The position numbers and the translations under genes are program-made. Below the pieces are notes generated by a model, which saw only the letters and a list, made by a program, of their open reading frames with translations, ran no database searches and was not told where the DNA came from. Shown piece by piece: positions 31,121-55,792 of a DNA stretch of 64,000 nt. The stretch is taken from positions 143,906-207,905 of the forward strand of contig JAGLUP010000002.1 of assembly GCA_023134715.1 (NCBI GenBank), given 5' to 3'. Every line of letters begins with the position of its first letter. Within the stretch, counting starts at the first letter, position 1. Origin of the DNA: Candidatus Parcubacteria bacterium. Lineage in GTDB: Bacteria > Patescibacteriota > Minisyncoccia > Minisyncoccales > JAGLUP01.

Positions 31121-31127
31121 AAATTAA

Positions 31128-31889: not shown

Positions 31890-31939
31890 AATATATTAAT
31901 CGTGCTTGGCTGTTGTGTTTGGCTAAGCCAAGCACAACA

Positions 31940-32530: not shown

Positions 32531-32572
32531 AATATACTAAAATTTAACCTTTAAGGTTAAATCTCTATAATT

Positions 32573-33226: not shown

Positions 33227-33241
33227 AAAAAATATATTTAT

Positions 33242-33574: not shown

Positions 33575-33616
33575 AAAAATAAAATTTAAAACCCAAGATT
33601 AAATCTTTCAAACTTT

Positions 33617-34468: not shown

Positions 34469-34574
34469 AATTTTTTGGTTTTCTTTGCCATAATTAAAAT
34501 TTAAAACTTACTTTCAATTATTTTACCAAATTAAAAACCTTAAATCAAGAACAAAAAAATCAATAGGAAATTCT

Positions 34575-36182: not shown

Positions 36183-36280
36183 ATTTTCATTTTATTATTT
36201 TATTTATTTTTGTGAAAAAGGTGGGCTGACCACCTTTTTTTGACTAATGGTTGATGATTGTCAACCAATTGTCAACCAAT

Positions 36281-36839
36281 TCACTGGTTGGCTCTGTGAA
36301 AATTTTTAGCTTCTGCTTCTTCAGTACTACAAAGCCATCTATCTTTTCTAAGCAAATTGATTTTGGTTTTAGAATAATATTTATCTCCGGGCAAATGATA
36401 ATATTTTTTACCCTCCTCGTTTATATTACCTTTAATTACGCATTCTCCATCAAATTGAGATTCTCCGCAAGAACCCCAAATTCCCAAAAAATCTATCATA
36501 TTTATCAATATCAAATTCTAAAACCACATTTCTGTCTAAAACCAGTTCCTCATTTTTTTCTTTTGCCTGAGAACAAAAACAAGTTTCATAATCCGGACCA
36601 TCAAGCTCCGGAGTGTCAATCCCAAGATAGCGGACATTAAAAACCTGGCCGGTTTTAATATCTTTCACCCTGATAGTATCTCCGTCAACCACTCTCCACA
36701 CTTCTACTTCAACCTCTTTAATCCCTCTAACTTCAGAAAGCTTAGATTGATTTTGATAAATATCAAACCCAAACAACAAAGAAAACAAAACCACCAAAAC
36801 CCCCAAAATAATTTTCAATAAATTCCTCCCATTTTTCAT
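36281..36839 (-). pseudogene. secreted thermonuclease (SNase) gene with sunset-type C-terminal domain, internally deleted and frameshifted
   Basis: Frame A (36450..36839): signal/TM + VVDGDTIRV...VRYLGIDTPE...DKYDR then out-of-frame tail. Frame B (36281..36514): GIWGSCGESQFDGECVIKGNI...YHLPGDKYY...RWLCSTEEAEAKNFHR. The middle of the SNase domain is missing. Confidence 0.65.
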
Positions 36840-36953
36840 AAATTTATTGTTTAGTAATTATATCTCTATTCTATCAAAAAATCGCCTTTTTGGCGATTTT
36901 TTTAAATCAGCAACTAACGCAATTAATAAAAGCACGACAAAATAACAATAATC

Positions 36954-37148
36954 TTAAATTTTATGATTGCCCGTTTTTAATCCTCCAAATTTATTTTCAT
37001 AGCTTTTGATTAAATTAGACTGTTCTATATTAGCATCTCTCGCTGCCTTATTTATTATTTTTTTTTGTTCACCTGACGATAAGCTAAAAAAATCTGTTTT
37101 TGATTTATTTGATCCTCTTTTTAGAAATTTGGATATTTTTTTAATCAT
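36954..37148 (-). CDS. hypothetical small protein
   Basis: 64 aa; ATGA overlap with the upstream gene 37145..37666. Confidence 0.3.
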   Translation of the reverse strand: MIKKISKFLKRGSNKSKTDFFSLSSGEQKKIINKAARDANIEQSNLIKSYENKFGGLKTGNHKI

Positions 37149-37666
37149 AATTTTAATCTTAATGATTTAATAGTATATTCCATTCTTAAATGATTGTCAA
37201 TGTCTTCAATATTAAACCAAGTCTTTTCAACTCTATTAGAATAATTTTTTTTAATCAAAAAAATTTGTATCTTATCTTTAAAATCTGCTTTTATCTTTTT
37301 CATATTTTCTTTCGCATTAAAGAATGATTTTATAAATACTTCTTTTGGAACATGTCTGCCTTCTAATTTTTCCCTTTTTTTTGTAAAATCCCATGCAATT
37401 AGAGGGTCTTGGTATATATAAAAAATTGCGGCAATACGATTTTTCTTAATAGACCTCTCTACATTACTATAAGAAATCTTGTAATTAGCAAATGTACCGT
37501 CAATTACCTCCTCCACTTCCACCTCAACAACCTGAAGCTCCTCATTTTCCCCAACTCCAGAAAGCTCAGATTGATTTTGATAAATATCAAACCCAAACAA
37601 CAAAGAAAACAAAACCACCAAGACCCCCAAAATAATTTTCAATAACCTTTTCCCATTTTTAAACAT
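37145..37666 (-). CDS. chimeric protein: nuclease-type signal peptide fused to a zeta-toxin-like C-terminal fragment (no P-loop)
   Basis: First about 45 aa and about 110-150 nt nearly identical to the start of 36450..36839; the remainder (IAWDFTKKREKLEGRHVPKEVFIKSFFNAKEN) resembles the C-terminal half of zeta/AAA_33 kinases; Walker A absent. Confidence 0.4.
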   Translation of the reverse strand: MFKNGKRLLKIILGVLVVLFSLLFGFDIYQNQSELSGVGENEELQVVEVEVEEVIDGTFANYKISYSNVERSIKKNRIAAIFYIYQDPLIAWDFTKKREKLEGRHVPKEVFIKSFFNAKENMKKIKADFKDKIQIFLIKKNYSNRVEKTWFNIEDIDNHLRMEYTIKSLRLKL

Positions 37667-38025
37667 AACCTTATTCTAAATTAATTTTTTAACTTTTATT
37701 TATTTGGCTTTTTATAATTCTAAATTTTTTCTGCAAAGCTAAACTCCGCGGGCAATTAGAGAGTTAGCTATTTTATTATTCTACCCTACCGCTTTTTTGC
37801 TTAAATTTCAAGACAAATAAAAAAACGAAACTGATTGATTTTATTTTAGAGGAAAAAATGGAAACAAAAAAAACAGAGGTTTTGACCCTGCTTTTGCTGA
37901 ACTAACTCCCAAAATTCAAATCATTTCCACCTCATATTTTTTGTTTTTATTGTTGGGCATTGATAAAATGTATTAAAAAATTTAACAACTTTTTCTTTTT
38001 TAATACGACTTAATATAGGTATAGA

Positions 38026-38445
38026 TTATTTTCTGATTTCTTCTCGGGGAGTTTCAAATTTATTAATATACATATCATATAAACTGTTATCTCTAATCAA
38101 ATCGTAAGCAATTCCAAATATCGATAAAACAATCAAAAAAATAGCACCTATTATTAACCCATTTAAAATTTTTACAGATTTATCAGTGAAGGCTTGTTGG
38201 GTTAACATTTTTGATAGTTTTTCTTTCTGTTTTTCTATTTCTTTTGCTTGTTTGTCAAATTGTTTTTTATACCTATTTAATGCTCCTTGAAGTTCCCTCA
38301 TTTCCCTATTGGTATTTTTAATCCACTCAAGTAATTTTAGTTGGCTAATCCTTAAGTCACCCGTAGAACCGACTAATCCCGTCTCCTCTGCTTCTTTTAA
38401 GAAATTAATGGGATCTTTAAAATTTCCTGATTCATTTTTGCTCAT
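38026..38445 (-). CDS. coiled-coil protein with C-terminal TM helix (gene 3 of island operon A)
   Basis: 139 aa; long heptad-like region then LIIGAIFLIVLSIFGIAYDLI; start overlaps the upstream gene by 14 nt. Confidence 0.55.
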   Translation of the reverse strand: MSKNESGNFKDPINFLKEAEETGLVGSTGDLRISQLKLLEWIKNTNREMRELQGALNRYKKQFDKQAKEIEKQKEKLSKMLTQQAFTDKSVKILNGLIIGAIFLIVLSIFGIAYDLIRDNSLYDMYINKFETPREEIRK

Positions 38446-39163
38446 AATTATTCAAAAATTTATTTATATTGTCGTATGTCATCTCTCCGGATGCTTTATC
38501 TAATATTTTTTTTATATCTTCAACAGTCAAATTATATTCATTTATTTTCTCTGATATAGTGTTTATGTCATACCGTAAAACTAATCTTTTATCATCTACT
38601 GGATCAGAAATTTTCCTTAAACTATCAATTTTAATAAATCTATTTATTTCCCAAGTATCGATGTTATCTTTTTCGGTGAATACTAAAGAAATATTTTTTA
38701 TTTTCCTACTTTCAGCAAAATAACAATCTTTTTTTAATAATTGATTTTGCAATATTGTGTTTGAGCTTTCGTCTAAATCTGTGATAAAATCCACTATAAA
38801 TCCTATTCTTCCTATAAACAAGGCTTGATCTTCTATAAAGTAAGAATAAATTTGTTTTACTTTTGATAGATAAATATTTTTCACTTCTTCAAATTTTTGT
38901 TTTTCGCTCACTTGCTGGAAGAAATCAATCCGTGGGATAGCAACATCACAACGAAAGATACCATCTTTTGACTGAAGCATTATTCTAGGAATCTCCAACG
39001 GTGCATCAATGGGCAACGGTAAAATAGTGGGCTCACCGTCAAAAAGAACTCCTGTCTTCACCTTTAAGTCATTAGCAATTTTAACTTTGTCAATGGGATT
39101 AAAGTTTTTAGGAAACAAAGCGAATTGAATTTTTTGAACTTTAAAATTTACACTTGTAGACAT
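38432..39163 (-). CDS. hypothetical protein, no recognisable motif (gene 2 of island operon A)
   Basis: 243-aa uninterrupted ORF, co-directional and translationally coupled to 38026..38445. Confidence 0.5.
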   Translation of the reverse strand: MSTSVNFKVQKIQFALFPKNFNPIDKVKIANDLKVKTGVLFDGEPTILPLPIDAPLEIPRIMLQSKDGIFRCDVAIPRIDFFQQVSEKQKFEEVKNIYLSKVKQIYSYFIEDQALFIGRIGFIVDFITDLDESSNTILQNQLLKKDCYFAESRKIKNISLVFTEKDNIDTWEINRFIKIDSLRKISDPVDDKRLVLRYDINTISEKINEYNLTVEDIKKILDKASGEMTYDNINKFLNNYEQK

Positions 39164-39245
39164 ATTTTTTTTCTTATAAATTAAAAACTGATTTAATTTT
39201 AACTTAACAAATTTTTACATAATTCTGTTGGTCTTGAGCTATATT

Positions 39246-40271
39246 TTACTTCCAGCCCTGACCAATTATTTTCCACATTACTTGCTCCTGCGGAATTTGA
39301 ATTTGACCTTGAGGCGTTTGTTGAGCCATTGAAACTTGACCTCTTTTATATTCTAAAATTAGTTCAAAATAATTTGTTGCTATTTGACTCTCAATAAAGG
39401 CAATTTTGTATTCTTTTCTATTTATTGCTTTGCCCTCGCCTAATTCAATTTCTGGATTCCATAAAACATCCAATTCCATCTCTTTTTTGTATTCTTCGTA
39501 TAATTTGGTAATTGAATCCGCTAACTCCTTATCAGTATAAGTTATAGTTTTAATTCCTAAATCCTCTTTTGCCTCTTTTCTGCCAATAAGGTACTGATGG
39601 GAGTAAAGTTTTTCCGTGAGAAAATCAACAATTTTATCAATTTCTTCATCAGCCATCGGATTTCTTTGGCTCTTTAATAATCGTTTTGCTAAAATTCTAA
39701 TTAAGTTATGAGTTCTATTGACATTTCCGAGAGCCAAAGGATGAATTTGAGGATTTGATTCCATAAATTTATTAAAAATTTTCGTCAAGTCCTCATCATT
39801 TTTAATCCCAAATTTATTTTTCGCTAAATCAAAATAAGCCATTACATCCTCTACGGAAATAGGAATTTTATTCTGCGGATTTTTTGGGTCCTGCGGGTTG
39901 AAAACATTAGCGGTTGAAGGGTCAATTGGCGAAAGCTCAGACAAATCGCTGGTAATAATTTCATCGCCCCCTAAAGCAATCATTGTTGCCGCGCTATGAG
40001 CTTTATATGGGATTAAAACAGAAAAGTTGTCGCAGTATTCACGAATCATTGAAACCAAACGCCAAGGCACCATTGTGTCTCCGCCAGTAGAATACAAAAA
40101 TAAATCAATTTTATCTGTTTTGCCGATTTTTCTTAACTGACTACTGATTACCGGAATAATATCCATAGCAATTCTGGCATTGACTGGTCCCTTTCTATCA
40201 CTGGTTAGATAAGTGATGACTTTTGACCCTCTTTTTTCTTCAATTTTTTTAATTAAATCTTGTGTTGCCAT
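39246..40271 (-). CDS. ClpP/SppA-fold serine protease-like protein (SDH-type 'serine dehydrogenase proteinase' family) (gene 1 of island operon A)
   Basis: DLFLYSTGGDTMVPWRLVSMIREY....VLIPYKAHSAATMIALGGDEII..LSELSPIDP matches the ClpP-fold periplasmic/SDH protease pattern; helical C-terminal half. Confidence 0.55.
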   Translation of the reverse strand: MATQDLIKKIEEKRGSKVITYLTSDRKGPVNARIAMDIIPVISSQLRKIGKTDKIDLFLYSTGGDTMVPWRLVSMIREYCDNFSVLIPYKAHSAATMIALGGDEIITSDLSELSPIDPSTANVFNPQDPKNPQNKIPISVEDVMAYFDLAKNKFGIKNDEDLTKIFNKFMESNPQIHPLALGNVNRTHNLIRILAKRLLKSQRNPMADEEIDKIVDFLTEKLYSHQYLIGRKEAKEDLGIKTITYTDKELADSITKLYEEYKKEMELDVLWNPEIELGEGKAINRKEYKIAFIESQIATNYFELILEYKRGQVSMAQQTPQGQIQIPQEQVMWKIIGQGWK

Positions 40272-40280
40272 ATTATTAAT

Positions 40281-40309
40281 ATAATATCACATTTTTAAAT
40301 ATTTTTCAA
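40281..40309 (-). promoter_or_regulatory. putative promoter of island operon A
   Basis: minus-sense TTGAAA (40304-40309), 17 nt, TATTAT (40281-40286), 10 nt before the ATG at 40271. Confidence 0.45.
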
Positions 40310-40448
40310 CTTTTGGGATGTCTTTAATTTTCCAAGATTTTTCTGAAAAAGGTGACTGGGTTCATTTTTTCTATTTTTTCATTTCTCAAAATGAAATTAA
40401 AAAAATTGAACGAATTAATTCACTAAAAGCTGACGAGGAAAGATAAAA

Positions 40449-40634
40449 CTATTTGCCCTTATGTTTTGTCTTATCGACTAACGTAAAAGTTTTTGCCTTA
40501 CCACCGTAAGGCGGAACTCTATCACCCTTGGAAAGAGTAATTTCAAACTTTGTGCCTGCTGGCCTATATTGGCCAGATTTAGGCGCCTTCTGTCCCGTCT
40601 TAATTCTAATTTTGCGTGATTGTCTATTTTTCAT
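40449..40634 (-). CDS. small basic protein, YjzC-like
   Basis: 61 aa; KTGQKAPKSGQYRP.G....TLSKGDRVPP resembles YjzC-family small proteins. Confidence 0.35.
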   Translation of the reverse strand: MKNRQSRKIRIKTGQKAPKSGQYRPAGTKFEITLSKGDRVPPYGGKAKTFTLVDKTKHKGK

Positions 40635-40711
40635 TTCATTTATTCTAAATTAATTTTTTATTTATTTTTCTAAAGAAAATGCCTGACCCCATTTTTGTTC
40701 ATGAAAAATTA

Positions 40712-41434
40712 TTATTTTAACTTAGGATAAATTATATCATCAAGAATGCCACTGGAATTAGGACGCCCCGTTAAAAGACCTAAATAATAATTTTTTTGTT
40801 CTGATAAATTCAATTTTCTATACAATAATTTCAAATATGAATCGAAATCGTTTTTTGAATTTAAATTTATCATTGATTTTGAATTTAGAACACATAATAA
40901 AATTTTTATACCAGCTCTTACTGAATCTAACTGCACTTTTTTGTTATTTGCTACGCTTATAAAATCTCTTCCAAATTTAGATCCAGTAAAATTGGGGTCA
41001 AAATTTTTGTATACATCATAAAATGGGTCTTTTTGTTGCCCGTGTTTCTGTATTAAGCAAAATACTTCTATTGCCACAATTTTGCTATTGTATTTAGCAG
41101 TAAAATCTGGTTGAGAAATCTTTTTCTTCGCTTTAAGCGGGATGATACTTGTAAAACCAAAATGCTGTAACCAAAATATAGATCGTAATTCAGCCAAAAA
41201 AGCTTCTAATGCTTCAATCGTTAAATCTTTTGGCTTAAAGTCTAATCTTTGCAAAAGATCAGGAAAAGACAAATTCGTAACCTTGCATGCATCTTCCATC
41301 TTTTCCAAAATTTCTGATATTACTTTTGGATCATTCAATCTTTCGTCTTTTATTTTGCTGTATAAATTATCCAAATAAACTAATAAATTATCCTTTGAAA
41401 AAAAGTTTGTATTTGTTTTTATTTTATCAATCAT
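40712..41434 (-). CDS. hypothetical protein, possible PD-(D/E)xK core
   Basis: 240 aa; QPDFTAKYNSKIVAIEVFC could be a D...E.x nuclease-fold core; weak. Confidence 0.35.
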   Translation of the reverse strand: MIDKIKTNTNFFSKDNLLVYLDNLYSKIKDERLNDPKVISEILEKMEDACKVTNLSFPDLLQRLDFKPKDLTIEALEAFLAELRSIFWLQHFGFTSIIPLKAKKKISQPDFTAKYNSKIVAIEVFCLIQKHGQQKDPFYDVYKNFDPNFTGSKFGRDFISVANNKKVQLDSVRAGIKILLCVLNSKSMINLNSKNDFDSYLKLLYRKLNLSEQKNYYLGLLTGRPNSSGILDDIIYPKLK

Positions 41435-41524
41435 TAGTTTCGGTAAAAATAAATCGTGGAAAAATGATAATTCTTAATTTTTTCTTGTGTCATAAATCAT
41501 ATTTATATCATTATAATGCTCTAA

Positions 41525-41929
41525 TTATATCATTGCTGTTTTCTTAATTGAATCTAAAACCCAATCTCCTCTTAGTTTGTCTTTCATATTTTCAACTTCT
41601 TTGAGGGAAAACCATTGAGCGTCAAGAATTTCATCTTTGGGGAAATTAAGTCGTCCGTCAATTATTTTAGCTCTAAAAGAATGCTTTACTGGAGCTTTTG
41701 CGTTCTCGTGAAAAATATCTATTTTTTTTAATAGTTCAACATTATAACCAGTTTCTTCTTTAGCTTCCTTAACAGCAGTTTCTTCAATTGATAAACCCTG
41801 CTCTACCCTACCAGCAGGAAGATTCCATTTTCCATAACATTGAGCCTGCTTTTCTTGAACTAATAAAAACTTGCCATCTTTTTCAATAACCACTCCAGCT
41901 GCGACACCTATTTTAACTAAATTTTCCAT
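41525..41929 (-). CDS. NUDIX hydrolase, copy 1
   Basis: Nudix box GRVEQGLSIEETAVKEAKEETGY; 134 aa; 3 aa differences from 48888..49292. Confidence 0.85.
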   Translation of the reverse strand: MENLVKIGVAAGVVIEKDGKFLLVQEKQAQCYGKWNLPAGRVEQGLSIEETAVKEAKEETGYNVELLKKIDIFHENAKAPVKHSFRAKIIDGRLNFPKDEILDAQWFSLKEVENMKDKLRGDWVLDSIKKTAMI

Positions 41930-41937
41930 AAATTTTA

Positions 41938-42582
41938 TTATAATAAAAACATTTTTTTCACAAGTTTTCTAGGATTATACTCATTGTAACCATAATTAGG
42001 CCAAATTTCTCCAATATGGATTTTCCAAACCCCATCCTTATTCTTATTTGTATTAATAAACATTATTTTTGAGAAAGGAAACCCTGTTATATAAATGGAC
42101 CTCGCTGTTTTTTCTAAGTTAATGCCTTTGTGGCCATCAAAAAAAATTACTAAAATCGCAGAACTTTTTGTATACTTTTTTTGTATTTTAGAAAGAAGAT
42201 GAATTAATCCTTTTGTATCTTTTTCTTTTTGAAAGTGTCCAAAACGCTTTAGTTGGAAAATCCAGGCAACGTTTTTCTTTCCATAAAAGCTTCCAACTGG
42301 TGAAATTGCAACATCAACTAAATCATTCTCTTCATTATGGATTTCAATCAAGTCTTTAGCCTCATCTACTGTAAGCGGCTTAGAATTTTTTTCATAATAT
42401 TTTAAATATTTTGGATTTAATTTAATGCCAACAACACAATCAAAACCATTTTCTATTTCAAAAAATCCTTTTAGAATAATCGCTGCTCCCAACTCATAAT
42501 CTTTTCCCATCAGACGTTTACCATACTTTTTTATGTATAGTCTAATTGTCTTGTCGTCTAGGTATATATAATCACCATGCAT
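41938..42582 (-). CDS. hypothetical protein (8-nt gap to NUDIX copy 1)
   Basis: 214 aa; DVAISPV...IFQLKR could be a nuclease-fold core; otherwise unassigned. Confidence 0.4.
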   Translation of the reverse strand: MHGDYIYLDDKTIRLYIKKYGKRLMGKDYELGAAIILKGFFEIENGFDCVVGIKLNPKYLKYYEKNSKPLTVDEAKDLIEIHNEENDLVDVAISPVGSFYGKKNVAWIFQLKRFGHFQKEKDTKGLIHLLSKIQKKYTKSSAILVIFFDGHKGINLEKTARSIYITGFPFSKIMFINTNKNKDGVWKIHIGEIWPNYGYNEYNPRKLVKKMFLL

Positions 42583-42690
42583 AATTTATAATAAACAACT
42601 ATATGGCATGTCGCCATAATTTTATTTTAAGCTTAAGATGTTCCAATTTTTCTCGTTTTCATAAGAATAATTTTCGTTTATGGATATTTT

Positions 42691-42876
42691 TTAATTCGCT
42701 TCTTCATAACATTTATCGCAAAGCTTTTTTCTATGTAAGGAATGTAAAAATTTATCTTTTATATTTTTTGCATAATAAAAATCACCAGTGTTTATTTGCC
42801 CTCTGCATTTCATGCAAGCATGACTTATTCTGGCCTTTGTTTTCTTAAAAAATTTTAGATTATCATATTTGCTCAT
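42691..42876 (-). CDS. small zinc-ribbon protein
   Basis: 61 aa with CMKC...CDKC pairs. Confidence 0.45.
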   Translation of the reverse strand: MSKYDNLKFFKKTKARISHACMKCRGQINTGDFYYAKNIKDKFLHSLHRKKLCDKCYEEAN

Positions 42877-42892
42877 AGTTTAAATTAAGATT

Positions 42893-43936: not shown

Positions 43937-43995
43937 AATTTTATATTTTAATTATTAATTAATTATTGTTATTTAATTTTCTGAAAAAGGTGGTT

Positions 43996-44045
43996 GACGC
44001 CATTTAATGTGGACCCCATTTAATGATTTAATGACCCTATTTAAC
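43996..44045. repeat. three direct repeats upstream of 42893..43936 (possible operator/iteron)
   Basis: gacgccatttaatg (43996), gaccccatttaatg (44012), gaccctatttaac (44033). Confidence 0.55.
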
Positions 44046-44095
44046 AAATCTACTTTAATTCCTTAGAAATTGAGTCAGCGAGGTTGCTATGCCGC

Positions 44096-44811
44096 CTACT
44101 TTAATCTTTTAATCTCTTTTTTTATTTCTTTGATTACTTCTGGATTATGGATTATCTTATCTTTACCTTCGGTTATTGAAATAATATAAAATACCTTTCC
44201 GCCGTATTTTGTGGTAAATTTTTCGTGCGTTTTTTTCTGCTGTTCTTTTTCGTTGATTATTTGCGTAATATATTCAAAGCCCGCGGGTTTTATTTGAAGA
44301 CCGATATATTTTTCGTGAATTTTAATAAAATAATCAACATTATATCTTCTATCCCATTCATCGGAAGCAGGTTCAATTTTAACTCCGAGGGTTTTTTCAA
44401 GTTGTCCGTATATTGTTTGAATCTCTGATTGATAACCATCAAAAGTTCTATTTATAACCAGGTTGTATATAAAGTTTATACAATCCTCTTCGGTAACATT
44501 TTCTATTTCGGCTTTACAAACATCGGTAACTTTAATAAATAATATTTTTCCAAGTTGCTCAAGGTGTTGTTTTGAATAAGCTTTGTCTAAATAAAATTTT
44601 AGCCTAATTTTTTATATTTATTATTTATGATACATTCTTGAAATACAACTGCACTTAAAGAACATTTTAAAAAAATAAAATTTAAAGCTTGTTCTGAATC
44701 ATAATTATTTCTTCTTAGAATTTTAAAAAAATCCCAAAAAGAAAATTTATCATGAAGAATAAAAAAATTTTCATTGTTTTTAACAAATTGTCGATTCAAG
44801 ATTTTCTTCAT
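44096..44811 (-). pseudogene. restriction-endonuclease-like gene interrupted by a frameshift
   Basis: N-terminal 70 aa (44599..44811) stop at 44599. A Met-less 171-codon frame (44096..44611) continues with ...YNVDYFIKIHEKYIGLQIKP... (D...Q.K core). The frames overlap at an a/t run, 44599-44611. Confidence 0.55.
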
Positions 44812-44858
44812 AATTTATTTTACTAGACTAATATAATATCTCTTGCTAGTATAGTAGC

Positions 44859-45875
44859 ATGAGATATCATATTCTTACAACTGTCAAATTTGCTAATGAA
44901 TGTATTGAAAACGGCATTTATGGAGCTACTAATTCTAACTGGCTAGCCAATATTGAGTTTGGCGACTTTGTTTTTATTTCACAATTTAATTATAAATCAC
45001 AAAACATTTATGGACCGTTTAAAGTTGCAGAAACTTTATTCTACGATAAAAATATAATTTATCCAAATCAAAAATATTATTATCGTATTAAGCTTGATCC
45101 AAGTAAGGTTAAAGTAATCGACGAAACTGATTTATATTTAAATGGCATTAAAAATGAAAATATAGATTTGGCATATTATATTATTAATTTAATACAACAA
45201 AATAAACATCTTCATTCAATAAGCCTTGTTGAACAAGAAGGAAAATTTATTTTAGAAACTATAGAAAAATTGGGCAATAAAACTAAAATAGAAAGCGTTA
45301 ATAATCATTCTTTAGATTTCGAGACACACAAGGTTGATACAAATTTTTTGATAGCGAAAAATAAACTATTCAAAAAATTATCTTTTTCTTCCGAAAGCGA
45401 TTTGGAAGCTTTTATTTTATTAAATTTAAAAAATGAAAATAGTATATTATACAAACAAATTGATAAAATTTTAAATGAATTTCAAAAAAATTATCTTGGT
45501 AATTCAATAACTTATAACCAATTTATTTTTGGCAATGCCTATCCAGCAGATATTGTAATTATCAATAAGGAAAATATAAATATCTTCGAACTAAAAAAAG
45601 ACATCCTTGATCAAAACCCACTCTCAATTTTAAGAAAAGAAATGAAAAAATACTGTTATTACTCTTTATTTTCTCGTAGAATACAAAATAAAGATATTAA
45701 ACGAATGAATTTTTTCCTTCTTACCCTAAAAGATGCTAATAATAAAACCAAAAAAGATCTTTATCGTGAGTTTAGTAATATAAACAATTTTGTAAGTAAT
45801 TTAAGAGAAAATAATTTTATTATTCTCGAATATTATATTGATAATGGTCGTTTATTTATAAAAAAAGTAAACTAA
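44859..45875 (+). CDS. PUA/EVE-like N-terminal domain + PD-(D/E)xK nuclease domain protein (type IV restriction-like)
   Basis: N-terminus GIYGAT...W..I..GDFVFI....IYGPFKV resembles PUA-like readers (weak). C-terminus SESDLEAFILLNL...YPADIVIINKENINIFELKKD...KYCYY is a NucS/PDDEXK-like core. It is the only plus-strand gene inside the minus-strand R-M remnant. Confidence 0.5.
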   Translation: MRYHILTTVKFANECIENGIYGATNSNWLANIEFGDFVFISQFNYKSQNIYGPFKVAETLFYDKNIIYPNQKYYYRIKLDPSKVKVIDETDLYLNGIKNENIDLAYYIINLIQQNKHLHSISLVEQEGKFILETIEKLGNKTKIESVNNHSLDFETHKVDTNFLIAKNKLFKKLSFSSESDLEAFILLNLKNENSILYKQIDKILNEFQKNYLGNSITYNQFIFGNAYPADIVIINKENINIFELKKDILDQNPLSILRKEMKKYCYYSLFSRRIQNKDIKRMNFFLLTLKDANNKTKKDLYREFSNINNFVSNLRENNFIILEYYIDNGRLFIKKVN

Positions 45876-46234
45876 GTTTTTTGCCAAATAATAGCTCCTA
45901 TATAATCAAAACCGATAGTTTCGCAAAATTTAATTATTTCTGTTCTAATTGGAATAATTTTATATCTACCATAATAAACCGCGCGAGCAAATTGATCGCC
46001 TATGTTTATGCAAAGCCTACAACCATCATTCAAAACCCTAAAACACTCTTTCCATACTAAATTTAGGTTATTAATATAATTTTCATAACTATCATTGAAG
46101 CCAATCTGATCTGACGAGCCATAATCTTTTAATTGCCAATAGGGTGGTGAAGTAATCACGAGATGAACAGAATTATTTTTTAATTCTGGCATATTTCTGG
46201 AATCGCCTATTATAACCTTGTGATTAGTTTTCAT
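45872..46234 (-). pseudogene. N4/N6 DNA methyltransferase, N-terminal fragment only
   Basis: SPPY motif IV (VITSPPYWQLKDY) and IIWQK present; stops after 120 aa; the FxGxG SAM-binding half is absent; the stop overlaps the end of 44859..45875. Confidence 0.65.
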
Positions 46235-46416
46235 ATTTTCATATTTTATTATTCCAATTATTAGAATAAAAATTTGGGTTGCGTAGTTTTAATTATCTAT
46301 GCTTTATTATAACAAAAAACCGCTTCTGCGGAAAGGCGGAGGCGGGGTTTTCAATGTTTGTTTGTAAATAAAAAAGCCTTGCGGAAGCAGGGCGGGGTTG
46401 TTTTGGTCGGATAATT

Positions 46417-46611
46417 TTATTTACTTGGTTTTTCAGGGACGACAAAAGCAGAAATAATATAAACAAAAATACCTGGGGCAAAACCAGTAAAAACAACAAT
46501 CAAAAGCCAAGTAATTCTCAAAATAGCAGGGTCTATATTTAAATATTCCCCTATTCCTCCAATAACTCCCGCGAAGATTCTATTTTTCTCGCTTCTATAT
46601 AATTTTTTCAT
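46417..46611 (-). CDS. PspC-domain membrane protein
   Basis: LYRS..NRIFAGVIGGIGEYLNIDPAILRI.W. Confidence 0.75.
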   Translation of the reverse strand: MKKLYRSEKNRIFAGVIGGIGEYLNIDPAILRITWLLIVVFTGFAPGIFVYIISAFVVPEKPSK

Positions 46612-46742
46612 AATTTTTATTTATTTTTATTTATATTTTTATTATAACAAAAAATTATTGTTTTGGTAATTTTATTTTCTTTTTCTGATTTAGTAAAATT
46701 TTAAGTAAAAGAATAGTCGCAGGATATACTGCGACATAAATT

Positions 46743-47138
46743 TTAATGACTTGGTGGATCACTTTTTTCACTTAGCTCTATTTTGAAAAAGCTTTGATCA
46801 TCGGGGTCAATTTCTCCGACAAAAACTTCCATACTCCCTCCGTCATGATTGCAACAAAGAGAGTTTCCGACGAAATGGCATATATCAACAGCCAAATCAT
46901 CTCTTAACCTCTTTGTTCTTTCTTGACTAGAAAGAAAATCAACGTAAACAAGTATTTTATTTCCTATTTGTTTTTTAATATTTATCCCGTCGACATAAAT
47001 CTCTGTCTTATCGTCAAATTTCACAATCACCTCCTTAGATTCCACCTTTAACTTTTCTACTATAATCCGTGTAACCAAACTTGCTACACCATCCCTTGAC
47101 TCTCCTTCTGGAAGTCCTTCAATCCTTATAATTGGCAT
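46743..47138 (-). CDS. hypothetical protein, possibly tautomerase-like (Met-Pro start)
   Basis: The track ORF starts at TTG 47204; an internal ATG gives MPIIRIEG..., reminiscent of 4-OT/MIF Pro-1 enzymes; weak. Confidence 0.3.
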   Translation of the reverse strand: MPIIRIEGLPEGESRDGVASLVTRIIVEKLKVESKEVIVKFDDKTEIYVDGINIKKQIGNKILVYVDFLSSQERTKRLRDDLAVDICHFVGNSLCCNHDGGSMEVFVGEIDPDDQSFFKIELSEKSDPPSH

Positions 47139-47401
47139 TTTCTTTTTTATTTCGGTATTTTTTTTATTCAATTCTTTCTCTCCAGATTTAATTGTAAGGA
47201 GCAATTTCTATTTTAAAGAATAGCATAAAATTAAGGTTCTGTCAATTTTTTAATATAAAAAAGCCTTGCGAAGGCAAGGCGGGGTTGTTTTGGAATAAAG
47301 TTTAAAATTTGGGGTTAAATTTTTAATTTTTCAAATTCGTCAATATCTTTATTTTTTCTCACATTATCCAAGGAAGTGATTGAGGTCGAACCTCAGCCGC
47401 T

Positions 47402-48487
47402 TTAATCATCGTCTATTAAATCTGTTCTGAACTTTGCATAGATTGGATAATGGTCCGAGACATCCCAGACTAATTCTTTGTCACTGAGCGCGTATTCTTC
47501 GTCAAAATAAAAAACTGCCGCGCTGTTACTCATATATTCGTGACTAAGTGTAGCATTTATCATAACTATTCTATCATAAGTCCAGTCAGTTTTAGTCATA
47601 GTATCCATATCATTAGTAATTACCCAATGGTATTTATAGGATTTAAAAGGATTAATATCGTCATCTTCATCAAAATAACTTCCATCTGCGTTAAAATCTC
47701 CCATAACTATAATATCTTTTTCGTTGGGGTCTTTTGCTAAAATTGAATCAACGACATCCGCAAGATAGCTAATTTCGGAGTCGGCATCATCCGGCTTAAC
47801 GTGAATTCCCGCAAGAGTAAAGTCAAAATTTCCTTTTTTGAAAGAAGCTATATATGGCTCTCTTTGAAAAACATCGTTTATATCATTATACACATAAGCA
47901 GAGCCCTCAATAAATTCTATTTCATCGGTATTATAGAAATAAGCATAAGCTTCCTTGCTGCTTCCTCTGCCAAGCCTTTCACTTCTTTGAAAAGCATATT
48001 TTTGATAACCAGCCGCTTCGTTTATTTTTTGAAGGTAATAAGGAGCGGTTTCTTCTTTTGCGTCTCTAATTTCTTGAACAAGCATAACATCAAATTCTTG
48101 AGCGATTCTTTTCAGCATATCCATTACGTCATTTTTCTCTCTTTTCGTTTTTCCAAATATCTGAATATTGAAGGCGGCAACTTTAATCGGTTTTACTTCT
48201 GAACACTTATTATTTTTACATTCACAGCCAAATACTTCGTGTACCTCCTGACAATTAATTCCACAAACCTTATTTTCTAAAACTTCCGGCGTCTGACCCG
48301 CGCGATAACACTTGCAATCACAAAGAGAAAGATTGCACTCATTACTTTGTTCACATTCTTTGCTATCCTCTAATTCTTGTTGAAAGAACAAAAATGAAAA
48401 ACCGATAGAAGTTATTATTAAAACAATTATTGAACTTTTTTTCAAGTTGGTTATTTTTTTATTTTTTGGCATATTATTTATTGACAT
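47402..48487 (-). CDS. secreted DNase I-like endonuclease/exonuclease/phosphatase (EEP) family nuclease with Cys-rich N-terminal domain
   Basis: signal/TM; IKVAAFNIQIFG..K.......L..I....DV.LVQEI; GDFNADGSY; SDHYPIYA. Confidence 0.75.
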   Translation of the reverse strand: MSINNMPKNKKITNLKKSSIIVLIITSIGFSFLFFQQELEDSKECEQSNECNLSLCDCKCYRAGQTPEVLENKVCGINCQEVHEVFGCECKNNKCSEVKPIKVAAFNIQIFGKTKREKNDVMDMLKRIAQEFDVMLVQEIRDAKEETAPYYLQKINEAAGYQKYAFQRSERLGRGSSKEAYAYFYNTDEIEFIEGSAYVYNDINDVFQREPYIASFKKGNFDFTLAGIHVKPDDADSEISYLADVVDSILAKDPNEKDIIVMGDFNADGSYFDEDDDINPFKSYKYHWVITNDMDTMTKTDWTYDRIVMINATLSHEYMSNSAAVFYFDEEYALSDKELVWDVSDHYPIYAKFRTDLIDDD

Positions 48488-48736
48488 GGAAAGTCCTATC
48501 CTTATAACAGATTTCTTTTCCGGGAAGTAATTCTACTTTTGGTAGATATGAGTAAATTTCATCTTAGTGTATTATACCTGCATTTCACTCAAAAACAATA
48601 TCTGCGCTATATTTGAAACAAGCGAAATCCCATCGGTTTCGCTTTTTAATTTCTATCCAAGAAGGCGACAAAAAAGAGATTTTGCAATTCCCCTAAATAG
48701 TGAGTTTGACAATTTCGCCGTGTTTATTCAGAATAT

Positions 48737-48856
48737 TTATCTTCCTTTTTGTCTATTCTCTTTTTCAATGTTGTTTCCAACCGTGCATTCTTTGTAAATA
48801 TGATATACTTCTGTTTTTTCGTCTGTATGATATGGTTTAACTTTTTTGGGTTTCAT
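48737..48856 (-). CDS. possible 39-aa small protein (below ORF-track cutoff)
   Basis: MKPKKVKPYHTDEKTEVYHIYKECTVGNNIEKENRQKGR; a VYH..C..G..I...N pattern I recall only loosely; its first codons are part of the NUDIX-associated duplication. Confidence 0.25.
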   Translation of the reverse strand: MKPKKVKPYHTDEKTEVYHIYKECTVGNNIEKENRQKGR

Positions 48857-48887
48857 AAATTTTATTTATATCATTATAATGCTCTAA

Positions 48888-49292
48888 TTATATCATTGCT
48901 GTTTTCTTAATTGAATCTAAAACCCAATCTCCTCTTAGTTTGTCTTTCATATTTTCAACTTCTTTGAGGGAAAACCATTGAGCGTCAAGAATTTCATCTT
49001 TGGGGAAATTAAGTTGTCCGTCAATTATTTTAGCTCTAAAAGAATGCTTTACTGGAGCTTTTGCGTTCTCGTGAAAAATATCTATTTTTTTTAATAGTTC
49101 AACATTATAACCAGTTTCTTCTTTAGCTTCCTTAACGGCAGTTTCTTCAATTGATAAACCTTGCTCTACTCTGCCAGCAGGAAGATTCCATTTTCCATAA
49201 CATTGAGCCTGCTTTTCTTGAACTAATAAAAACTTGCCATCTTTTTCAATAACCACTCCAGCTGCGATATTTATTTTAACTAAATTTTCCAT
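48888..49292 (-). CDS. NUDIX hydrolase, copy 2
   Basis: same Nudix box; about 450 nt including flanks nearly identical to 41491-41940. Confidence 0.85.
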   Translation of the reverse strand: MENLVKINIAAGVVIEKDGKFLLVQEKQAQCYGKWNLPAGRVEQGLSIEETAVKEAKEETGYNVELLKKIDIFHENAKAPVKHSFRAKIIDGQLNFPKDEILDAQWFSLKEVENMKDKLRGDWVLDSIKKTAMI

Positions 49293-49333
49293 AAATTTTA
49301 TTTATTTTTTGAAAAAGGTGGCTGACTGGATTT

Positions 49334-49708
49334 TTAACTTAAATACTTTTTTATTCTATCGCGGTCCTCATTTTCTTTTTCACCCTTAAAATATATCTGA
49401 ATAAATTCAACTTTACAAGTTTGAGAATAAAAAGCGTAAATAACTCGTATTCCGCTTTTTGAGCCTCGTCCTTTTAGCGCCTTGCAGGCAAATTTTTTGA
49501 TTTTGCAAATTTGTACTATTTCCGTACAAAAACCTTTGATTGGAAAAATGCTTTGATTGTCAATGCGTTTAAGGTGATAAAGCTCAATAGCGTTGCGTTT
49601 TGCAGTTTCTAAATCTTCCTCAAGCGTTCTATATTTTTTGAGAAGTCGCTTGAGGTCTTTTTGAAAAAGGTTAATTTCACTGTATTTAATCTTCGTCGGT
49701 TTTGTCAT
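49334..49708 (-). CDS. RelE/ParE-superfamily-like toxin
   Basis: 124 aa; ...GSKSGIRVIYAFY....V.FIQIYFKGEKENED resembles RelE/HigB-type toxins; overlaps the upstream antitoxin by 23 nt. Confidence 0.5.
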   Translation of the reverse strand: MTKPTKIKYSEINLFQKDLKRLLKKYRTLEEDLETAKRNAIELYHLKRIDNQSIFPIKGFCTEIVQICKIKKFACKALKGRGSKSGIRVIYAFYSQTCKVEFIQIYFKGEKENEDRDRIKKYLS

Positions 49709-50477
49709 ATTTTCTTACTGATGTTTCGGGCGTGCGGTAAAACACCGACTCAAAATCAAGCGGTTTTCCGTCTTCCGCGCTAATCCACGGGACATCTTTA
49801 TGTGATAAATCTGTTAATTGACTGGCTGTTAAATCAGAAAGTCGTTGTAATTCCCAATCAATATGCTTCTGTTCTTGGCCATTTAAAATGCTTAATTCCG
49901 GCTCAATTGCCGGATTGACCAAATACTTGGTTTGAGGATATTGGTAAAACTTGCTTTTTACGATTTCCACATCGCCATCTTTCACCATATCTTTGATAAG
50001 ATTTTCAAACAAAAGCGGCGTTGGCCCATGATGATTTTTCATATACACTAAACCCATCAACTGGTCCTCATATTTTTCGTAATAGTCAAAATCTATAAAA
50101 TAAAGCAATTTATACAAAACCGTCATGCCAACATTCGGCTTGCCGCCGACTTTTTTTAAAATGTAAAGCAAAATTTGTCGAAACTTATCTGCTTTTTCTT
50201 GCGGAACGCTTATTCTAATCTCATTTTCTTGCTTTTGAGTTTGTTTTTTCTTTTTTTCCACTTTTACGATTGTCTTTATTCCTTCCTTGCTTTGCAAAAA
50301 ATTTTGAAAAGAAATGTTAAAAATTTCCGCCAGCTTTTTTGCTTCGGTAATAGTTAAATCCCGCCCGCCTTGTTCTATTTGAACATAAGTCGGACGGGAA
50401 ATGCTTAATTCAGACGCCAAAAACTCCTGCGTCAAATTGCGCTTTTTCCGTTGTTGTTGAATGAATTTTGCAAGCAT
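49686..50477 (-). CDS. XRE-HTH + Panacea (DUF4065/SocA-like) domain antitoxin
   Basis: LTQEFLASELSISRPTYVQIEQG HTH; C-terminal KLLYFIDFDYYEKY...G..Y.KN.HGP typical of DUF4065; promoter TTGACA-17-TATACT at about 50486-50514 (minus). Confidence 0.6.
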   Translation of the reverse strand: MLAKFIQQQRKKRNLTQEFLASELSISRPTYVQIEQGGRDLTITEAKKLAEIFNISFQNFLQSKEGIKTIVKVEKKKKQTQKQENEIRISVPQEKADKFRQILLYILKKVGGKPNVGMTVLYKLLYFIDFDYYEKYEDQLMGLVYMKNHHGPTPLLFENLIKDMVKDGDVEIVKSKFYQYPQTKYLVNPAIEPELSILNGQEQKHIDWELQRLSDLTASQLTDLSHKDVPWISAEDGKPLDFESVFYRTPETSVRKYDKTDED

Positions 50478-50549
50478 AGTGATTATAGTATAGGCGATGT
50501 AAAATTATTTGTCAATAGCAATGTCAAAAAGTTATACACACCCTATATT

Positions 50550-50834
50550 TCACTGGTTGGCTCTGTGAAAATTTTTGGCTTCTGCTTCTTCAATAGAGCA
50601 AAGCCATTTGTCTTCTTCAAAAAGATTAATCGTGGTTAGAGAGTAATGTTTATCTCCGGGAAGATGATAATATTTTCGATATTTTTGGCTTGTGTGACGG
50701 CTAACATTGCCCTTAATTACGCATTTTCCATCAAATTGAGATTCTCCGCAAGAACCCCAAATTCCCAAAAAACCGCTTCTGCTAAAAGGCGGATTTGGGA
50801 TTTTCGTTTTTTGCAGAATGTGGCTCTCTCCCAC
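50550..50834 (-). pseudogene. 3' fragment of a second SNase/sunset-domain nuclease gene
   Basis: GIWGSCGESQFDGKCVIKGN...YHLPGDKHY...KWLCSIEEAEAKNFHRANQ; about 230-245 nt homologous to 36281-36510 (about 80 percent identity by eye); the N-terminal domain is replaced by a terminator-like repeat. Confidence 0.6.
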
Positions 50835-50926
50835 TTGACAAGGGGTGTGAATTTGCTATTGTTAAAGTATTAAGACGAAAGGGAATCCGAACGGTTTACT
50901 GCCTAAGGAGACCCTTTCTTTTTTTA

Positions 50927-51142
50927 TTACTGTATTTTTCTTTTAACTCCTTCGTTACCCAAATAATCAAAATACATAGGCATAAGTTTTCTATATAATG
51001 AAGAAGCGAATTGTTTATTTGGAAAAAGTATTTTCTTAAATCTATTTTCTTCAATCAAAAAATCCACGAGCATTTTATAATCTCCATCTCCAGAAACAAG
51101 AACTATTTTATCAAATGGTTCTTTTTTGTATAATTTTTTCAT
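50927..51142 (-). pseudogene. C-terminal fragment of an NYN/LabA-like (DUF88) protein
   Basis: IVLVSGDGDYKMLVDFL matches the end of NYN domains; only 71 aa. Confidence 0.45.
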
Positions 51143-51220
51143 TACATTAAAAAACCGCTTTTACTGAAAGGCGGAGGCGGGGGTGTTATAGTTTACACTG
51201 AGGAGCGAAGCGACGAAGTG

Positions 51221-51294
51221 TGCGCTCGGAGGGGATCGAACCCCCGACCATCGGCTTAAAAGGCCGCTGCTCTACCTAACTGAGCTACGAGCGC
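51221..51294 (-). tRNA. tRNA-Lys (anticodon UUU), CCA not encoded
   Basis: GCGCTCG-TA-GCTC-AGTTAGGTA-GAGC-A-GCGGC-CTTTTAA-GCCGA-TGGTC-GGGGG-TTCGATC-CCCTC-CGAGCGC-A folds as a 74-nt cloverleaf with one 27:43 mismatch. Confidence 0.85.
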
Positions 51295-55341: not shown

Positions 55342-55472
55342 ATCCGATAGTAAAACAAAAAACCCACAGAGCTAAGCTCCGCAGGTTTTTTGTTTATTTC
55401 TATTCACCTTTTTCCAACCCACAAACTTTTTTATGAGCTCGAAAAAATAAGAAAGAGAAAAAAATTTCTTTT

Positions 55473-55766: not shown

Positions 55767-55792
55767 TGTTTTTACCTCCGCAGGAATAATGT

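Follow-up and report, generated by a model that had tools for sequence, protein, structure and literature searches.

In the genome of an ultra-small Parcubacteria (Patescibacteria) bacterium, a 20.7-kb stretch beside the gene for tRNA-Lys is probably a flexible genomic island and recombination hotspot. It was identified in a window of 64,000 nucleotides, i.e., the whole stretch of DNA that was analysed, and it extends from ~30.54 to ~51.19 kb of that window. Across related genomes the site is either empty or filled with up to 21 kb of defence, toxin-antitoxin and nuclease genes that have been swapped, duplicated or are in decay.

The locus and its conserved flanks

In related genomes two conserved blocks frame the site: grpE-dnaK-dnaJ-tRNA-Lys and, at its opposite end, (LPG synthase)-ctpB-rplI-pyrG. 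The tRNA-Lys(UUU) gene follows dnaJ in 43 of the 44 related loci scanned, and homology to L120 runs 32 nt beyond tRNA-Lys, ending at 51188 (blastn end point). Between these blocks, L123 (DnaJ 77% identity) harbors an empty site, where tRNA-Lys is followed by 52 nt and the LPG synthase gene. L120 (DnaJ 82%) has an 8.7-kb spacer with NUDIX, a type IIG restriction-modification enzyme, a Dam-like methylase, a YjzC-like gene, DUF2726 and PIF1, while DG_74_2 (DnaJ 85%) has a spacer of at least 9.5 kb in which an intact SNase-67aa-NYN module adjoins LPG synthase. Across the 23 loci with both genes, the dnaJ-ctpB spacer ranges from 156 to 9,189 bp and the contents are unrelated.

That relatives differ at exactly this site in whether genes are present and in which ones, as shown by the comparison that the original prediction had proposed, bears out its view that the segment is accessory; the boundaries that it drew and the role that it gave to repeats are, however, unsupported. 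The minus-strand bias that it pointed out is present but not island-specific (the flanking genes at 24-55 kb lie on the same strand). The species is represented in the collections by one population (two assemblies, 5 mismatches in 20.5 kb), and the turnover described here applies between species or genera (DnaJ 77-85%), not within a species. Relatives at this distance are remote enough that ordinary synteny loss could explain part of the difference. The island is slightly AT-richer and its tetranucleotide content is modestly deviant, a compositional signal that is weak.

The features of the region are as follows (position, strand, description).

51220-51294, minus, tRNA-Lys(UUU), the conserved right anchor (ARAGORN and Rfam)
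51151-51185, no strand, terminator-like repeat T1; its T-run abuts the truncated NYN gene
50862-51153, minus, 3' fragment of an NYN-domain gene (ORF 50927-51142) with ~65 nt downstream
50769-50800, no strand, terminator-like repeat T2; its T-run is the junction with SNase-sunset copy c
50550-50772, minus, SNase-sunset copy c, a 3' fragment with the sunset domain only
49334-50477, minus, toxin-antitoxin pair: antitoxin (49686-50477) with HTH-Panacea domain (SocA-like; Pfam) and putative 124-aa toxin (49334-49708) with weak HigB-2 resemblance (PDB phmmer E = 0.06)
48837-49302, minus, NUDIX duplicate A (ORF 48888-49292), preceded by the motif copy at 49287-49339
47402-48487, minus, secreted or membrane-anchored nuclease of the endonuclease/exonuclease/phosphatase family, 361 aa (Pfam Exo_endo_phos)
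46417-47204, minus, PspC-domain protein (46417-46611) and 153-aa protein (46743-47204)
46316-46352, no strand, terminator-like repeat T3
45872-46234, minus, N-terminal fragment (120 aa) of an N6/N4 DNA methylase (Pfam N6_N4_Mtase positions 1-83 of 221)
44599-45875, no strand, insertion splitting a restriction-modification system
44096-44598, minus, start-less remnant of an MjaI-family restriction endonuclease, in a stretch that had looked non-coding
42893-43936, minus, 347-aa protein with Mrr_cat restriction-endonuclease fold (within 41938-44017)
42691-42876, minus, 61-aa Cys-rich ORF
41938-42582, minus, 214-aa protein
41474-41939, minus, NUDIX duplicate B (ORF 41525-41929)
40712-41434, minus, 240-aa protein (within 40324-41434)
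40449-40634, minus, YjzC-like gene (61 aa) with motif copies on either side
40324-40373, 40649-40705, 43956-44017 and 49287-49339, motif copies
38026-40271, minus, three-gene operon: ClpP-like SDH-type protease (39246-40271), 243-aa protein (38432-39163) and 139-aa membrane protein (38026-38445), matching PHROG families 11747, 24110 and 2990
36954-37666, minus, SNase-sunset copy a: gene 5' end (37513-37666) fused to a Zeta-toxin fragment
36281-36839, minus, SNase-sunset copy b, a pseudogene with two overlapping ORFs
36189-36246, minus, motif copy with perfect 10-bp hairpin (AAAAAGGTGG/CCACCTTTTT), immediately upstream of PIF1
34575-36182, minus, PIF1-like helicase with C-terminal HTH_40 domain (Pfam)
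30563-34563, minus, left part of the variable region
34519-34563, promoter-like 45-mer, in L114 immediately upstream of the LPG synthase gene
28218-30535, minus, LPG_synthase_TM (29480-30535) and ctpB (28218-29438), the conserved left anchor

A mosaic of cassettes and remnants

Nucleotide identities of core genes are 80-85% to L120, 82% to L114 and 84% to L122. Judged by alignment against these values, individual cassettes are common to different relatives at above-core identities. PIF1 is 94.9% identical to L120 over 36211-34574 (vs 80-85% for core genes), the NYN fragment, which covers Pfam NYN profile positions 87-135 of 145, is 94.9% identical to the intact NYN gene in L114 (core 82%; alignment, blastn), and tRNA_bind is 90.5% identical to L122, where it adjoins tRNA-Lys. 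The small YjzC-like cassette is common to L115 (82% nt) and L120 (86% nt). Both L108 and L018 have homologous toxin-antitoxin pairs at this hotspot, and the protease alone, 78% identical at the amino acid level, is found in L079 at a different site.

PIF1, which had been taken as the core-side boundary, is itself cargo, i.e., a cassette and not a core gene; its identity to L120 exceeds the core level and it carries a copy of the island motif. Its neighbours are unrelated in 30 other genomes, and the variable region continues beyond it to LPG synthase at ~30.54 kb. This left part encodes a 283-aa repeat protein, a 217-aa protein and a metallo-beta-lactamase-fold protein, as well as tRNA_bind, S26 signal peptidase and Ser_hydrolase; S26 signal peptidase and tRNA_bind are housekeeping-like.

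At least six gene remnants were found in the island, in agreement with the many fragments that had been noted. The methylase fragment is the methylase remnant of a destroyed MjaI-like restriction-modification system, the nuclease remnant of which matches Pfam RE_MjaI over profile positions 39-164 of 164 (E = 4e-27, from translation). The insertion between the two holds a plus-strand 338-aa gene (44859-45875) with a weak EVE/PUA-like N-terminus and a 70-aa ORF (44599-44811, minus strand). PADLOC recognised no complete defence system. In agreement with the original prediction, no integrase or transposase was found in Pfam scans of the called genes at 29-62 kb. The island yielded no phage structural genes, and the tRNA 3' end is not copied anywhere in the window, i.e., there is no tRNA-derived att repeat.

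Duplications, terminator-like repeats and junctions

Internal duplications, as had been described, are present; they involve the NUDIX gene, the SNase 5' end and the sunset repeat. NUDIX copies A and B differ at 15 of 466 nt and bracket a 7,363-bp unit. The SNase 5' end occurs at 36689-36836 and 37513-37660 (83% identical), and the SNase 5' part is 87% identical to a relative's copy (core value 82%). The sunset-domain 3' repeat, at 36280-36491 and 50549-50772 in direct orientation, was measured at 80.9% identity in an alignment of 225 columns that contains a single 12-nt indel, and its initial 28 nt are identical; apart from small coordinate corrections, this is the ~80% identical nuclease repeat reported earlier. 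Both copies match the sunset domain NF051437 (NCBIfam).

These repeats had been thought to delimit the island, a role that the comparison does not support. Instead, they and a third remnant derive from a resident family of SNase-sunset genes, a member of which is intact at the same locus in the closest relative, and the right copy lies 420 bp within the variable region. Copies b and c have diverged from each other as much as from orthologues in other genomes, and copy c contains a 12-nt insert of the L114/P0002 type. Copy b, aligned to full-length homologues of 235-245 aa, covers Pfam SNase profile positions 1-56 of 107 and has lost ~165 bp (~55 aa) between AGATTT microhomologies; it is a pseudogene because this deletion shifts the frame. 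In copy a, the Zeta-toxin fragment is without the N-terminal 81 positions of a 199-position profile, and a 64-aa ORF lies next to it. The nuclease repeats are not att sites.

The 64-kb window has exactly three copies of the terminator-like repeat AAAACCGCTTCTGCNNAAAGGCGGA (46316, 50769 and 51151), with no match in any shuffle; as proposed earlier, this repeat cuts off the right sunset copy, with the T-run of T2 at the junction. A second terminator family is found at 46361-46406 and 47248-47293, one beyond the PspC-domain gene and one beyond the 153-aa gene. Several junctions fall at T-runs or microhomology, i.e., AGATTT in copy b, T2 for copy c and T1 for NYN.

The motif GAAAAAGGTGG is found in the island, with GAAAAAGGTGR on the plus strand at 36214, 40345, 43983 and 49311 and a fifth, degenerate copy at 40649-40705 (profile search). 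It forms part of a conserved intergenic element of ~45 nt, AAAAATGGGGTCAGCCACCTTTTTCAnAAAAATAAATAAAAT. All four sites reported earlier and the hairpin at 36214, the only copy with a good predicted hairpin, are present, but every copy can equally well be described as lying upstream of a gene. Three or four further copies occur in accessory regions of L115, L120 and L117; none was found in ~77 kb of core DNA from the same genomes, nor in the loci of other, more distant relatives (1.34 Mb of relatives' DNA scanned, L115 included).

Alternative explanations

A single Campbell-type insertion, in which a ~14.3-kb circle with a sunset segment recombined once with a resident sunset fragment, would make copies b and c the true boundaries of one inserted unit, near the picture drawn earlier. 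The repeats are indeed direct, 14,269 bp apart and start at the same T-run, they hold identical stretches of at least 28 nt that could support a RecA-mediated crossover, they have seven sites in common against both relatives, and the NUDIX pair shows the same, younger topology. Nevertheless, this explanation is unlikely: identity between b and c, at 94% in the 5' third, 69% in the central third and 90% in the 3' third, does not exceed the between-genome values, the L114-type insert of copy c is absent from copy b, the interior is a mosaic with cassettes common to different relatives and a nested duplication, and the variable region reaches past both repeats. Less likely still is an integrative element that once targeted the tRNA (a prophage, an ICE or an integrase-type island) and has since degraded, losing its integrase and att sites. 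Although the island abuts the tRNA-Lys 3' end, encodes a helicase and an Xre-type HTH protein alongside remnants of methylase and restriction genes, and includes a protease and 243-aa and 139-aa proteins that match PHROG families (including a weak holin-like match), the tRNA 3' end is not repeated anywhere in the window, and families of integrases, recombinases, terminases, capsid or tail proteins are absent. Moreover, tblastn against 50,697 phage records gave no match for the 243-aa protein and one partial 35% match for the protease, and what relatives carry at this site is unrelated.

That the ~45-nt element is a recombination site for single-gene cassettes, in an integron-like array served by an unidentified recombinase, seems very improbable. 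Its five copies in the island are all gene-oriented and at cassette 5' edges, further copies lie in accessory regions of L115, L120 and L117 with none in the core DNA scanned, and the homology tracts of the YjzC-like cassette and PIF1 begin or end within it. However, no IntI-like or other recombinase was found, the copies are without a common conserved fold, attC-like R''/R' ends or an Rfam match, and related terminator/promoter segments moving with cassettes explain the pattern equally well. Least credible of all is an assembly artefact, i.e., a chimeric contig join through the NUDIX repeat that mimics an island. Both public assemblies break within this repeat, at 48874, 41640 and 41850, and 41641-41849 is covered by the window alone, but breaks in or beside the 152-bp stretch identical in both NUDIX copies are expected de Bruijn-graph behaviour. 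L001 extends through copy A and all of the 7-kb unit into copy B, where it has the three B-specific bases, L003 exits copy B with B-specific bases, and the island conclusion is independent of this join.

Proposed origin

Genomic islands have been reported to be common in Patescibacteria (PMC12455944). In the island described here, cassettes were most likely gained, duplicated and lost through homologous and illegitimate recombination, routes that we infer from the anatomy of the junctions. DNA of related cells would enter and be exchanged by homologous recombination in the conserved flanks or in common cassettes, while illegitimate recombination at microhomologies, especially the T-runs after terminator hairpins, would make new junctions. 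Single-crossover or unequal recombination between common genes could yield direct duplications such as the NUDIX pair (7.36 kb) and the SNase-sunset remnants, and genes out of use would then decay. The earlier suggestion that recombination between repeats shaped the island thus stands as far as recombination signatures are concerned, but the sunset repeats are not its delimiting ends; if the proposed origin is correct, they are relics of the recombination process and not the ends of a mobile element.

Comparison with known systems

With integron cassette arrays the island shares co-oriented single-gene units and a recurring intergenic element between them, but it is without IntI, attC-like structure and attI/Pc architecture. 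Integrase-type tRNA islands and prophages are similar in their location at a tRNA 3' end, their accessory cargo and their absence from relatives, whereas here there is no integrase, tRNA 3'-end repeat, or mobility or structural genes. As in defence islands, MjaI-like nuclease and N6/N4 methylase remnants, an Mrr_cat nuclease and an EVE-like protein are clustered, together with toxin-antitoxin modules (Panacea, Zeta remnant) and a helicase; unlike in defence islands, several of the components are pseudogenes, PADLOC identifies none of the known systems in complete form, and the NUDIX genes and secreted nucleases may have a nutritional or housekeeping role rather than one in defence.

Flexible genomic islands of "additive" and "replacement" types, integration hotspots that lie between conserved core genes and often beside a tRNA, have been described for streamlined aquatic bacteria. 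The present locus resembles them in its fixed position between conserved flanks beside a tRNA, in cargo that differs by genome (with one site empty) and has an abundance of restriction-modification, toxin-antitoxin and nuclease genes, and in cassettes common to relatives at above-core identity. It differs in that the pattern is seen between species- or genus-level Parcubacteria relatives rather than strains, that the load of gene remnants is unusually high and that some cargo is housekeeping-like. The hotspot is an ordinary kind of flexible genomic island, though a well-resolved one.

Location and variability of the interval

The conserved blocks that flank the region, i.e., dnaK-dnaJ-tRNA-Lys and (LPG synthase)-ctpB-rplI-pyrG, are found in 23 distant and three closer relatives, and dnaK-dnaJ-tRNA-Lys(UUU) is retained in 43 of 44 related metagenome loci. 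The single tRNA of the window, tRNA-Lys(UUU), is located at 51220-51294 on the minus strand. Across the 23 distant loci, which also hold ctpB-rplI-pyrG, the spacer from dnaJ to ctpB ranges from 156 to 9,189 bp. In the shortest of these, tRNA-Lys immediately abuts ctpB, and a Pfam census of the 23 loci revealed unrelated contents (e.g., DinB, DUF763, a restriction-modification pair and glycosyltransferases). The three closer relatives were traced via their DnaJ homologues.

Table. Distance from tRNA-Lys to the LPG synthase gene in closer relatives and in the window
Locus; DnaJ identity to window; tRNA-Lys to LPG synthase
L123; 77%; 52 nt, empty site
L120; 82%; 8.7 kb
DG_74_2 (loci L122, L114 and L115); 85%; at least 9.5 kb
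Window; not applicable; 20.7 kb (51220 to 30535)

The L120 filling is composed of a 104-aa ORF, a NUDIX gene, a type IIG restriction-modification enzyme and two ORFs (245 and 470 aa), followed by a Dam-like methylase, a YjzC-like gene, DUF2726 and PIF1. In DG_74_2, a tRNA_bind gene is found close to the tRNA, and an intact module composed of SNase-sunset (244 aa), a 67-aa ORF and NYN adjoins the LPG synthase gene. Because the spacer is empty or otherwise filled at the same position in these closer relatives, the segment between PIF1 and tRNA-Lys (36211-51294), originally predicted to be an accessory island, is indeed accessory. The helicase gene, which had been taken as the core boundary of that island, does not mark its edge; the variable region is larger, running through PIF1 and on to ~30.56 kb. 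This polymorphism reflects turnover seen between relatives, the species itself being on record as one population (two assemblies, with 5 mismatches in 20.5 kb).

Another small spot of variability is located at 55400-58300, between corA (58621-59535) and grpE (54797-55294), where the window holds HicB/HicA (56179-56662) as well as a DUF2683-like antitoxin paired with a ParE/YafQ-like toxin (57197-57673); the corA-to-grpE distance in L120 and L123 is just ~0.2-0.7 kb. The window also holds a complete 16S rRNA gene (2866-4379), and the rRNA genes are unlinked, since 23S and 5S are absent across all 64 kb.

Gene content

Gene families were assigned using Pfam, NCBIfam and PHROG scans.

Table. Features of the segment in order along the minus strand, starting at the tRNA
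T1, first copy of the terminator-like repeat
NYN gene, 3' fragment
T2, second copy of the terminator-like repeat
Copy c of the SNase-sunset gene, sunset-domain fragment
HTH-Panacea antitoxin and 124-aa putative toxin with weak HigB-2 resemblance
NUDIX copy A
EEP-family nuclease
153-aa protein
PspC-domain protein
T3, third copy of the terminator-like repeat
45872-46234, N6/N4 methylase, initial 120 aa only
338-aa EVE-like gene, opposite strand
44096-44598, MjaI-family restriction endonuclease remnant (E = 4e-27), start-less, in seemingly non-coding DNA
Mrr_cat protein
214-aa protein
NUDIX copy B
240-aa protein
YjzC-like gene, 61 aa
ClpP-like SDH protease and two partner genes
Copy a, SNase 5' end joined to a Zeta-toxin fragment without the N-terminal 81 of 199 profile positions
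64-aa ORF
Copy b, SNase-sunset gene with internal deletion
PIF1

The reported bias toward the minus strand is present; it is shared by the flanks and is therefore uninformative about an island. The defence-type Pfam matches comprise the RE_MjaI and N6_N4_Mtase remnants, Mrr_cat, the EVE-like gene, the Panacea toxin-antitoxin pair and the Zeta remnant. No complete defence system was recognised by PADLOC, which gave only helicase-level matches, for PIF1. PDB sequence searches with the island proteins that lacked an assignment returned nothing useful except the weak HigB-2 match of the 124-aa toxin.

A homologue of the SDH-type protease (78% aa identity) is found in L079, a relative with a DnaJ identity to the window of merely 61%, at 4774-5796; there it is solitary between grpE and dnaK, without the 243-aa and 139-aa partners. 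The 283-aa gene beside PIF1, for which Pfam gave no match, contains an 81-nt unit in ~3.4 tandem copies, besides a further periodic repeat of 75-78 nt (33663-33934, 34047-34271).

SNase-sunset remnants

Complete members of the SNase-sunset family are 235-245 aa long and are composed of a transmembrane segment, an SNase domain and a sunset domain. All three copies in the window are partial, i.e., pseudogenised, and none retains the full open reading frame. Copy a consists of the 5' end only, joined to the Zeta fragment. Copy b is frameshifted and lacks ~55 aa between two AGATTT microhomologies, and copy c is limited to the sunset domain, starting at the same T-run as b and being fused to T2. 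The direct repeat described earlier is present in the same orientation at 36280-36491 (copy b) and 50549-50772 (copy c), with 80.9% identity, one 12-nt indel and 28 identical initial nucleotides. An insert of the L114 type is present in copy c and absent from copy b, and b and c have seven sites in common against both relatives.

The two repeats had been proposed to bound the island. Instead, they are remnants of a gene family resident at the locus and not att-like ends. A Campbell-type origin of the b/c direct repeats is topologically feasible but unlikely. The 81% identity does not mark the repeat as old and unrelated to insertion, because a crossover between diverged alleles keeps their divergence. 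Copies b and c are 94%, 69% and 90% identical in their 5', central and 3' thirds, which resembles a mosaic or gene-conversion pattern, but the matching thirds of two orthologues show 88-94%, 63-74% and 80-87% identity between genomes, so the apparent pattern mostly stems from some parts of the domain being conserved and others variable.

The 11-nt unit ATTGTCAACCA recurs 2.3 times at 36257-36281, in the gap that separates the stop codon of copy b from the adjacent hairpin; on the gene strand, the ATTGTCAACCA repeats yield two TTGACA boxes.

Junctions and gene flow

The terminator-like repeat occurs, as had been noted, exactly three times in 64 kb (46316, 50769 and 51151), and not in shuffled sequences. 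The NYN fragment abuts the T-run of T1 and copy c abuts that of T2. The NUDIX copies A and B bracket a unit of 7,363 bp. Between them, the MjaI-like restriction-modification operon is interrupted by the oppositely oriented 338-aa EVE-like gene, and the MjaI remnant and the N6/N4 methylase piece resemble what is left of a type II restriction-modification operon after an insertion destroyed it. Taken together, the joins at T-runs, the split operon and the NUDIX duplication suggest that illegitimate recombination at microhomologies and T-runs would have made the junctions, and homologous recombination between shared genes may also have contributed; on this anatomy, both would be routes by which the hotspot turns over.

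A further terminator family, in which GCCTTGCnnnnGCAAGGC has CCCCGCC before it and a T-run after it, is found at 46361-46406 and 47248-47293 and is absent from the remainder of the window. It is also found at L120 12214-12248 and L122 4501-4535, and is thus common to accessory regions of three genomes.

The identity to relatives varies from cassette to cassette. Core DNA is 80-85% identical to the window in L120, 82% in L114 and 84% in L122 at the nucleotide level, and several cassettes are closer to these relatives than the core is, which is evidence of the gene flow expected of a flexible island.

Table. Nucleotide identity of cassettes and of core DNA between the window and relatives
Cassette; relative; cassette identity; core identity
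PIF1 (36211-34574); L120; 94.9%; 80-85%
NYN fragment and 65 nt downstream; L114; 94.9%; 82%
tRNA_bind; L122; 90.5%; 84%
SNase 5' part of copy b; L114; 87%; 82%
YjzC-like cassette; L120 and L115; 86% and 82%; 80-85% (L120)

PIF1 is cargo, because its identity to L120 exceeds the core level. Its use as a stable core marker or synteny probe was ruled out, as 30 other genomes, including that of a relative with 84% aa identity, have unrelated genes beside it. A promoter-like 45-mer immediately precedes the LPG synthase gene in L114 and lies between PIF1 and the 283-aa gene in the window.

Composition and assembly support

The window is AT-rich (~32% GC). The GC content is 30.3% in the segment, 30.9% at 29.4-36.2 kb and 32.8-32.9% in the flanks, and the tetranucleotide distance from the flanks is highest, with values of 0.18-0.22, at 37.5-50 kb, compared to 0.10-0.16 elsewhere. 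The segment is therefore AT-richer and deviant in tetranucleotides, consistent with accessory DNA, but the difference is small and composition provides weak evidence.

Two contigs of GCA_030673145.1, a Candidatus Parcubacteria MAG, match the window at 100% identity; one of them stops at 48874 and the other begins at 41640, and 41850-62390 is spanned by an ENA scaffold. All these ends in the NUDIX genes lie in or beside a 152-bp stretch that is identical in both NUDIX copies, so these are the usual repeat-induced breaks, and copy-specific bases on either side of the break support the order seen in the window. Both retrieved public assemblies break in the NUDIX repeat, and 209 bp inside NUDIX B (41641-41849) are the sole part without independent cover.

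The intergenic motif

Four plus-strand occurrences of GAAAAAGGTGR are found within the segment, as described originally, and a profile search added a fifth, degenerate copy (40649-40705). The element is ~45 nt long, with the gene-strand consensus AAAAATGGGGTCAGCCACCTTTTTCAnAAAAATAAATAAAAT, and its five copies are located upstream of PIF1, the SDH protease, the YjzC-like gene, the Mrr_cat gene and NUDIX A. Additional copies are found in accessory regions of relatives (two in L115, one in L120 and a weak one in L117), such that the motif is confined to cassette edges in the accessory regions of the window genome and three relatives. The remainder of the window and the other loci of the more distant relatives gave no copy in a scan that covered 1.34 Mb from relatives, L115 included, and a search of viral contigs gave one chance 18-mer match in a GC-rich context.

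A structured RNA or terminator family was rejected on the basis of folding: only the copy at 36214 forms a stable hairpin and there is no conserved fold. Rfam, at gathering and E-value thresholds, returned the tRNA and the 16S gene only. We read the motif as a related terminator/leader segment travelling with the cassettes, although it may conceivably serve in recombination or as a binding site. That AAAAATGGGGTCAGCCACCTTTTTCAnAAAAATAAATAAAAT is where an unrecognised, integrase-free cassette exchange of ultra-small CPR bacteria has its site of recognition or crossover appears highly improbable; if true, the motif would be more than a terminator or promoter remnant carried along with genes.

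In L120 (17300-17363), a motif copy runs into ~20 nt that match the start of NUDIX A of the window exactly, and the YjzC-like gene comes next; this is another cassette-junction remnant in a relative.

Comparison with known systems

Taken together, the region is probably a flexible genomic island, i.e., a hotspot, without an integrase. The original statement that integrases and transposases are missing was confirmed by our own scans and by precomputed Pfam hits for all called genes at 29-62 kb, and neither tyrosine nor serine recombinases were among these Pfam hits. A search of the tRNA region against the window (blastn-short) gave no tRNA-derived att repeat, the terminator-like repeat being the sole match. 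PHROG and Pfam scans identified no phage structural, packaging or conjugation genes, just weak holin- and protease-like matches, and a phage origin of the protease operon was rejected, tblastn against phage records being essentially negative. The locus thus differs from an integrase-type tRNA island or prophage, where a recombinase, a direct repeat of the tRNA 3' end and phage or conjugation genes would be found. It also differs from an integron, as IntI is missing and the attC-type hairpin after each cassette is not matched, only one of the five motif copies being able to fold.

A tiny, streamlined Patescibacteria genome thus keeps a defined hotspot that turns over defence, toxin-antitoxin and nuclease genes with no visible integrase, and the locus offers a worked example in which relatives provide an empty site along with two different fillings. 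For annotation, PIF1 and the SNase-sunset, NYN, Zeta and MjaI-like restriction-modification pieces are best regarded as cargo or pseudogenes, and the interval between dnaJ-tRNA-Lys and LPG synthase-ctpB is a good target for studies of strain variation and of new defence genes in the clade. Genomic islands have been reported to be common in Patescibacteria (PMC12455944), and the locus reveals no new kind of element.
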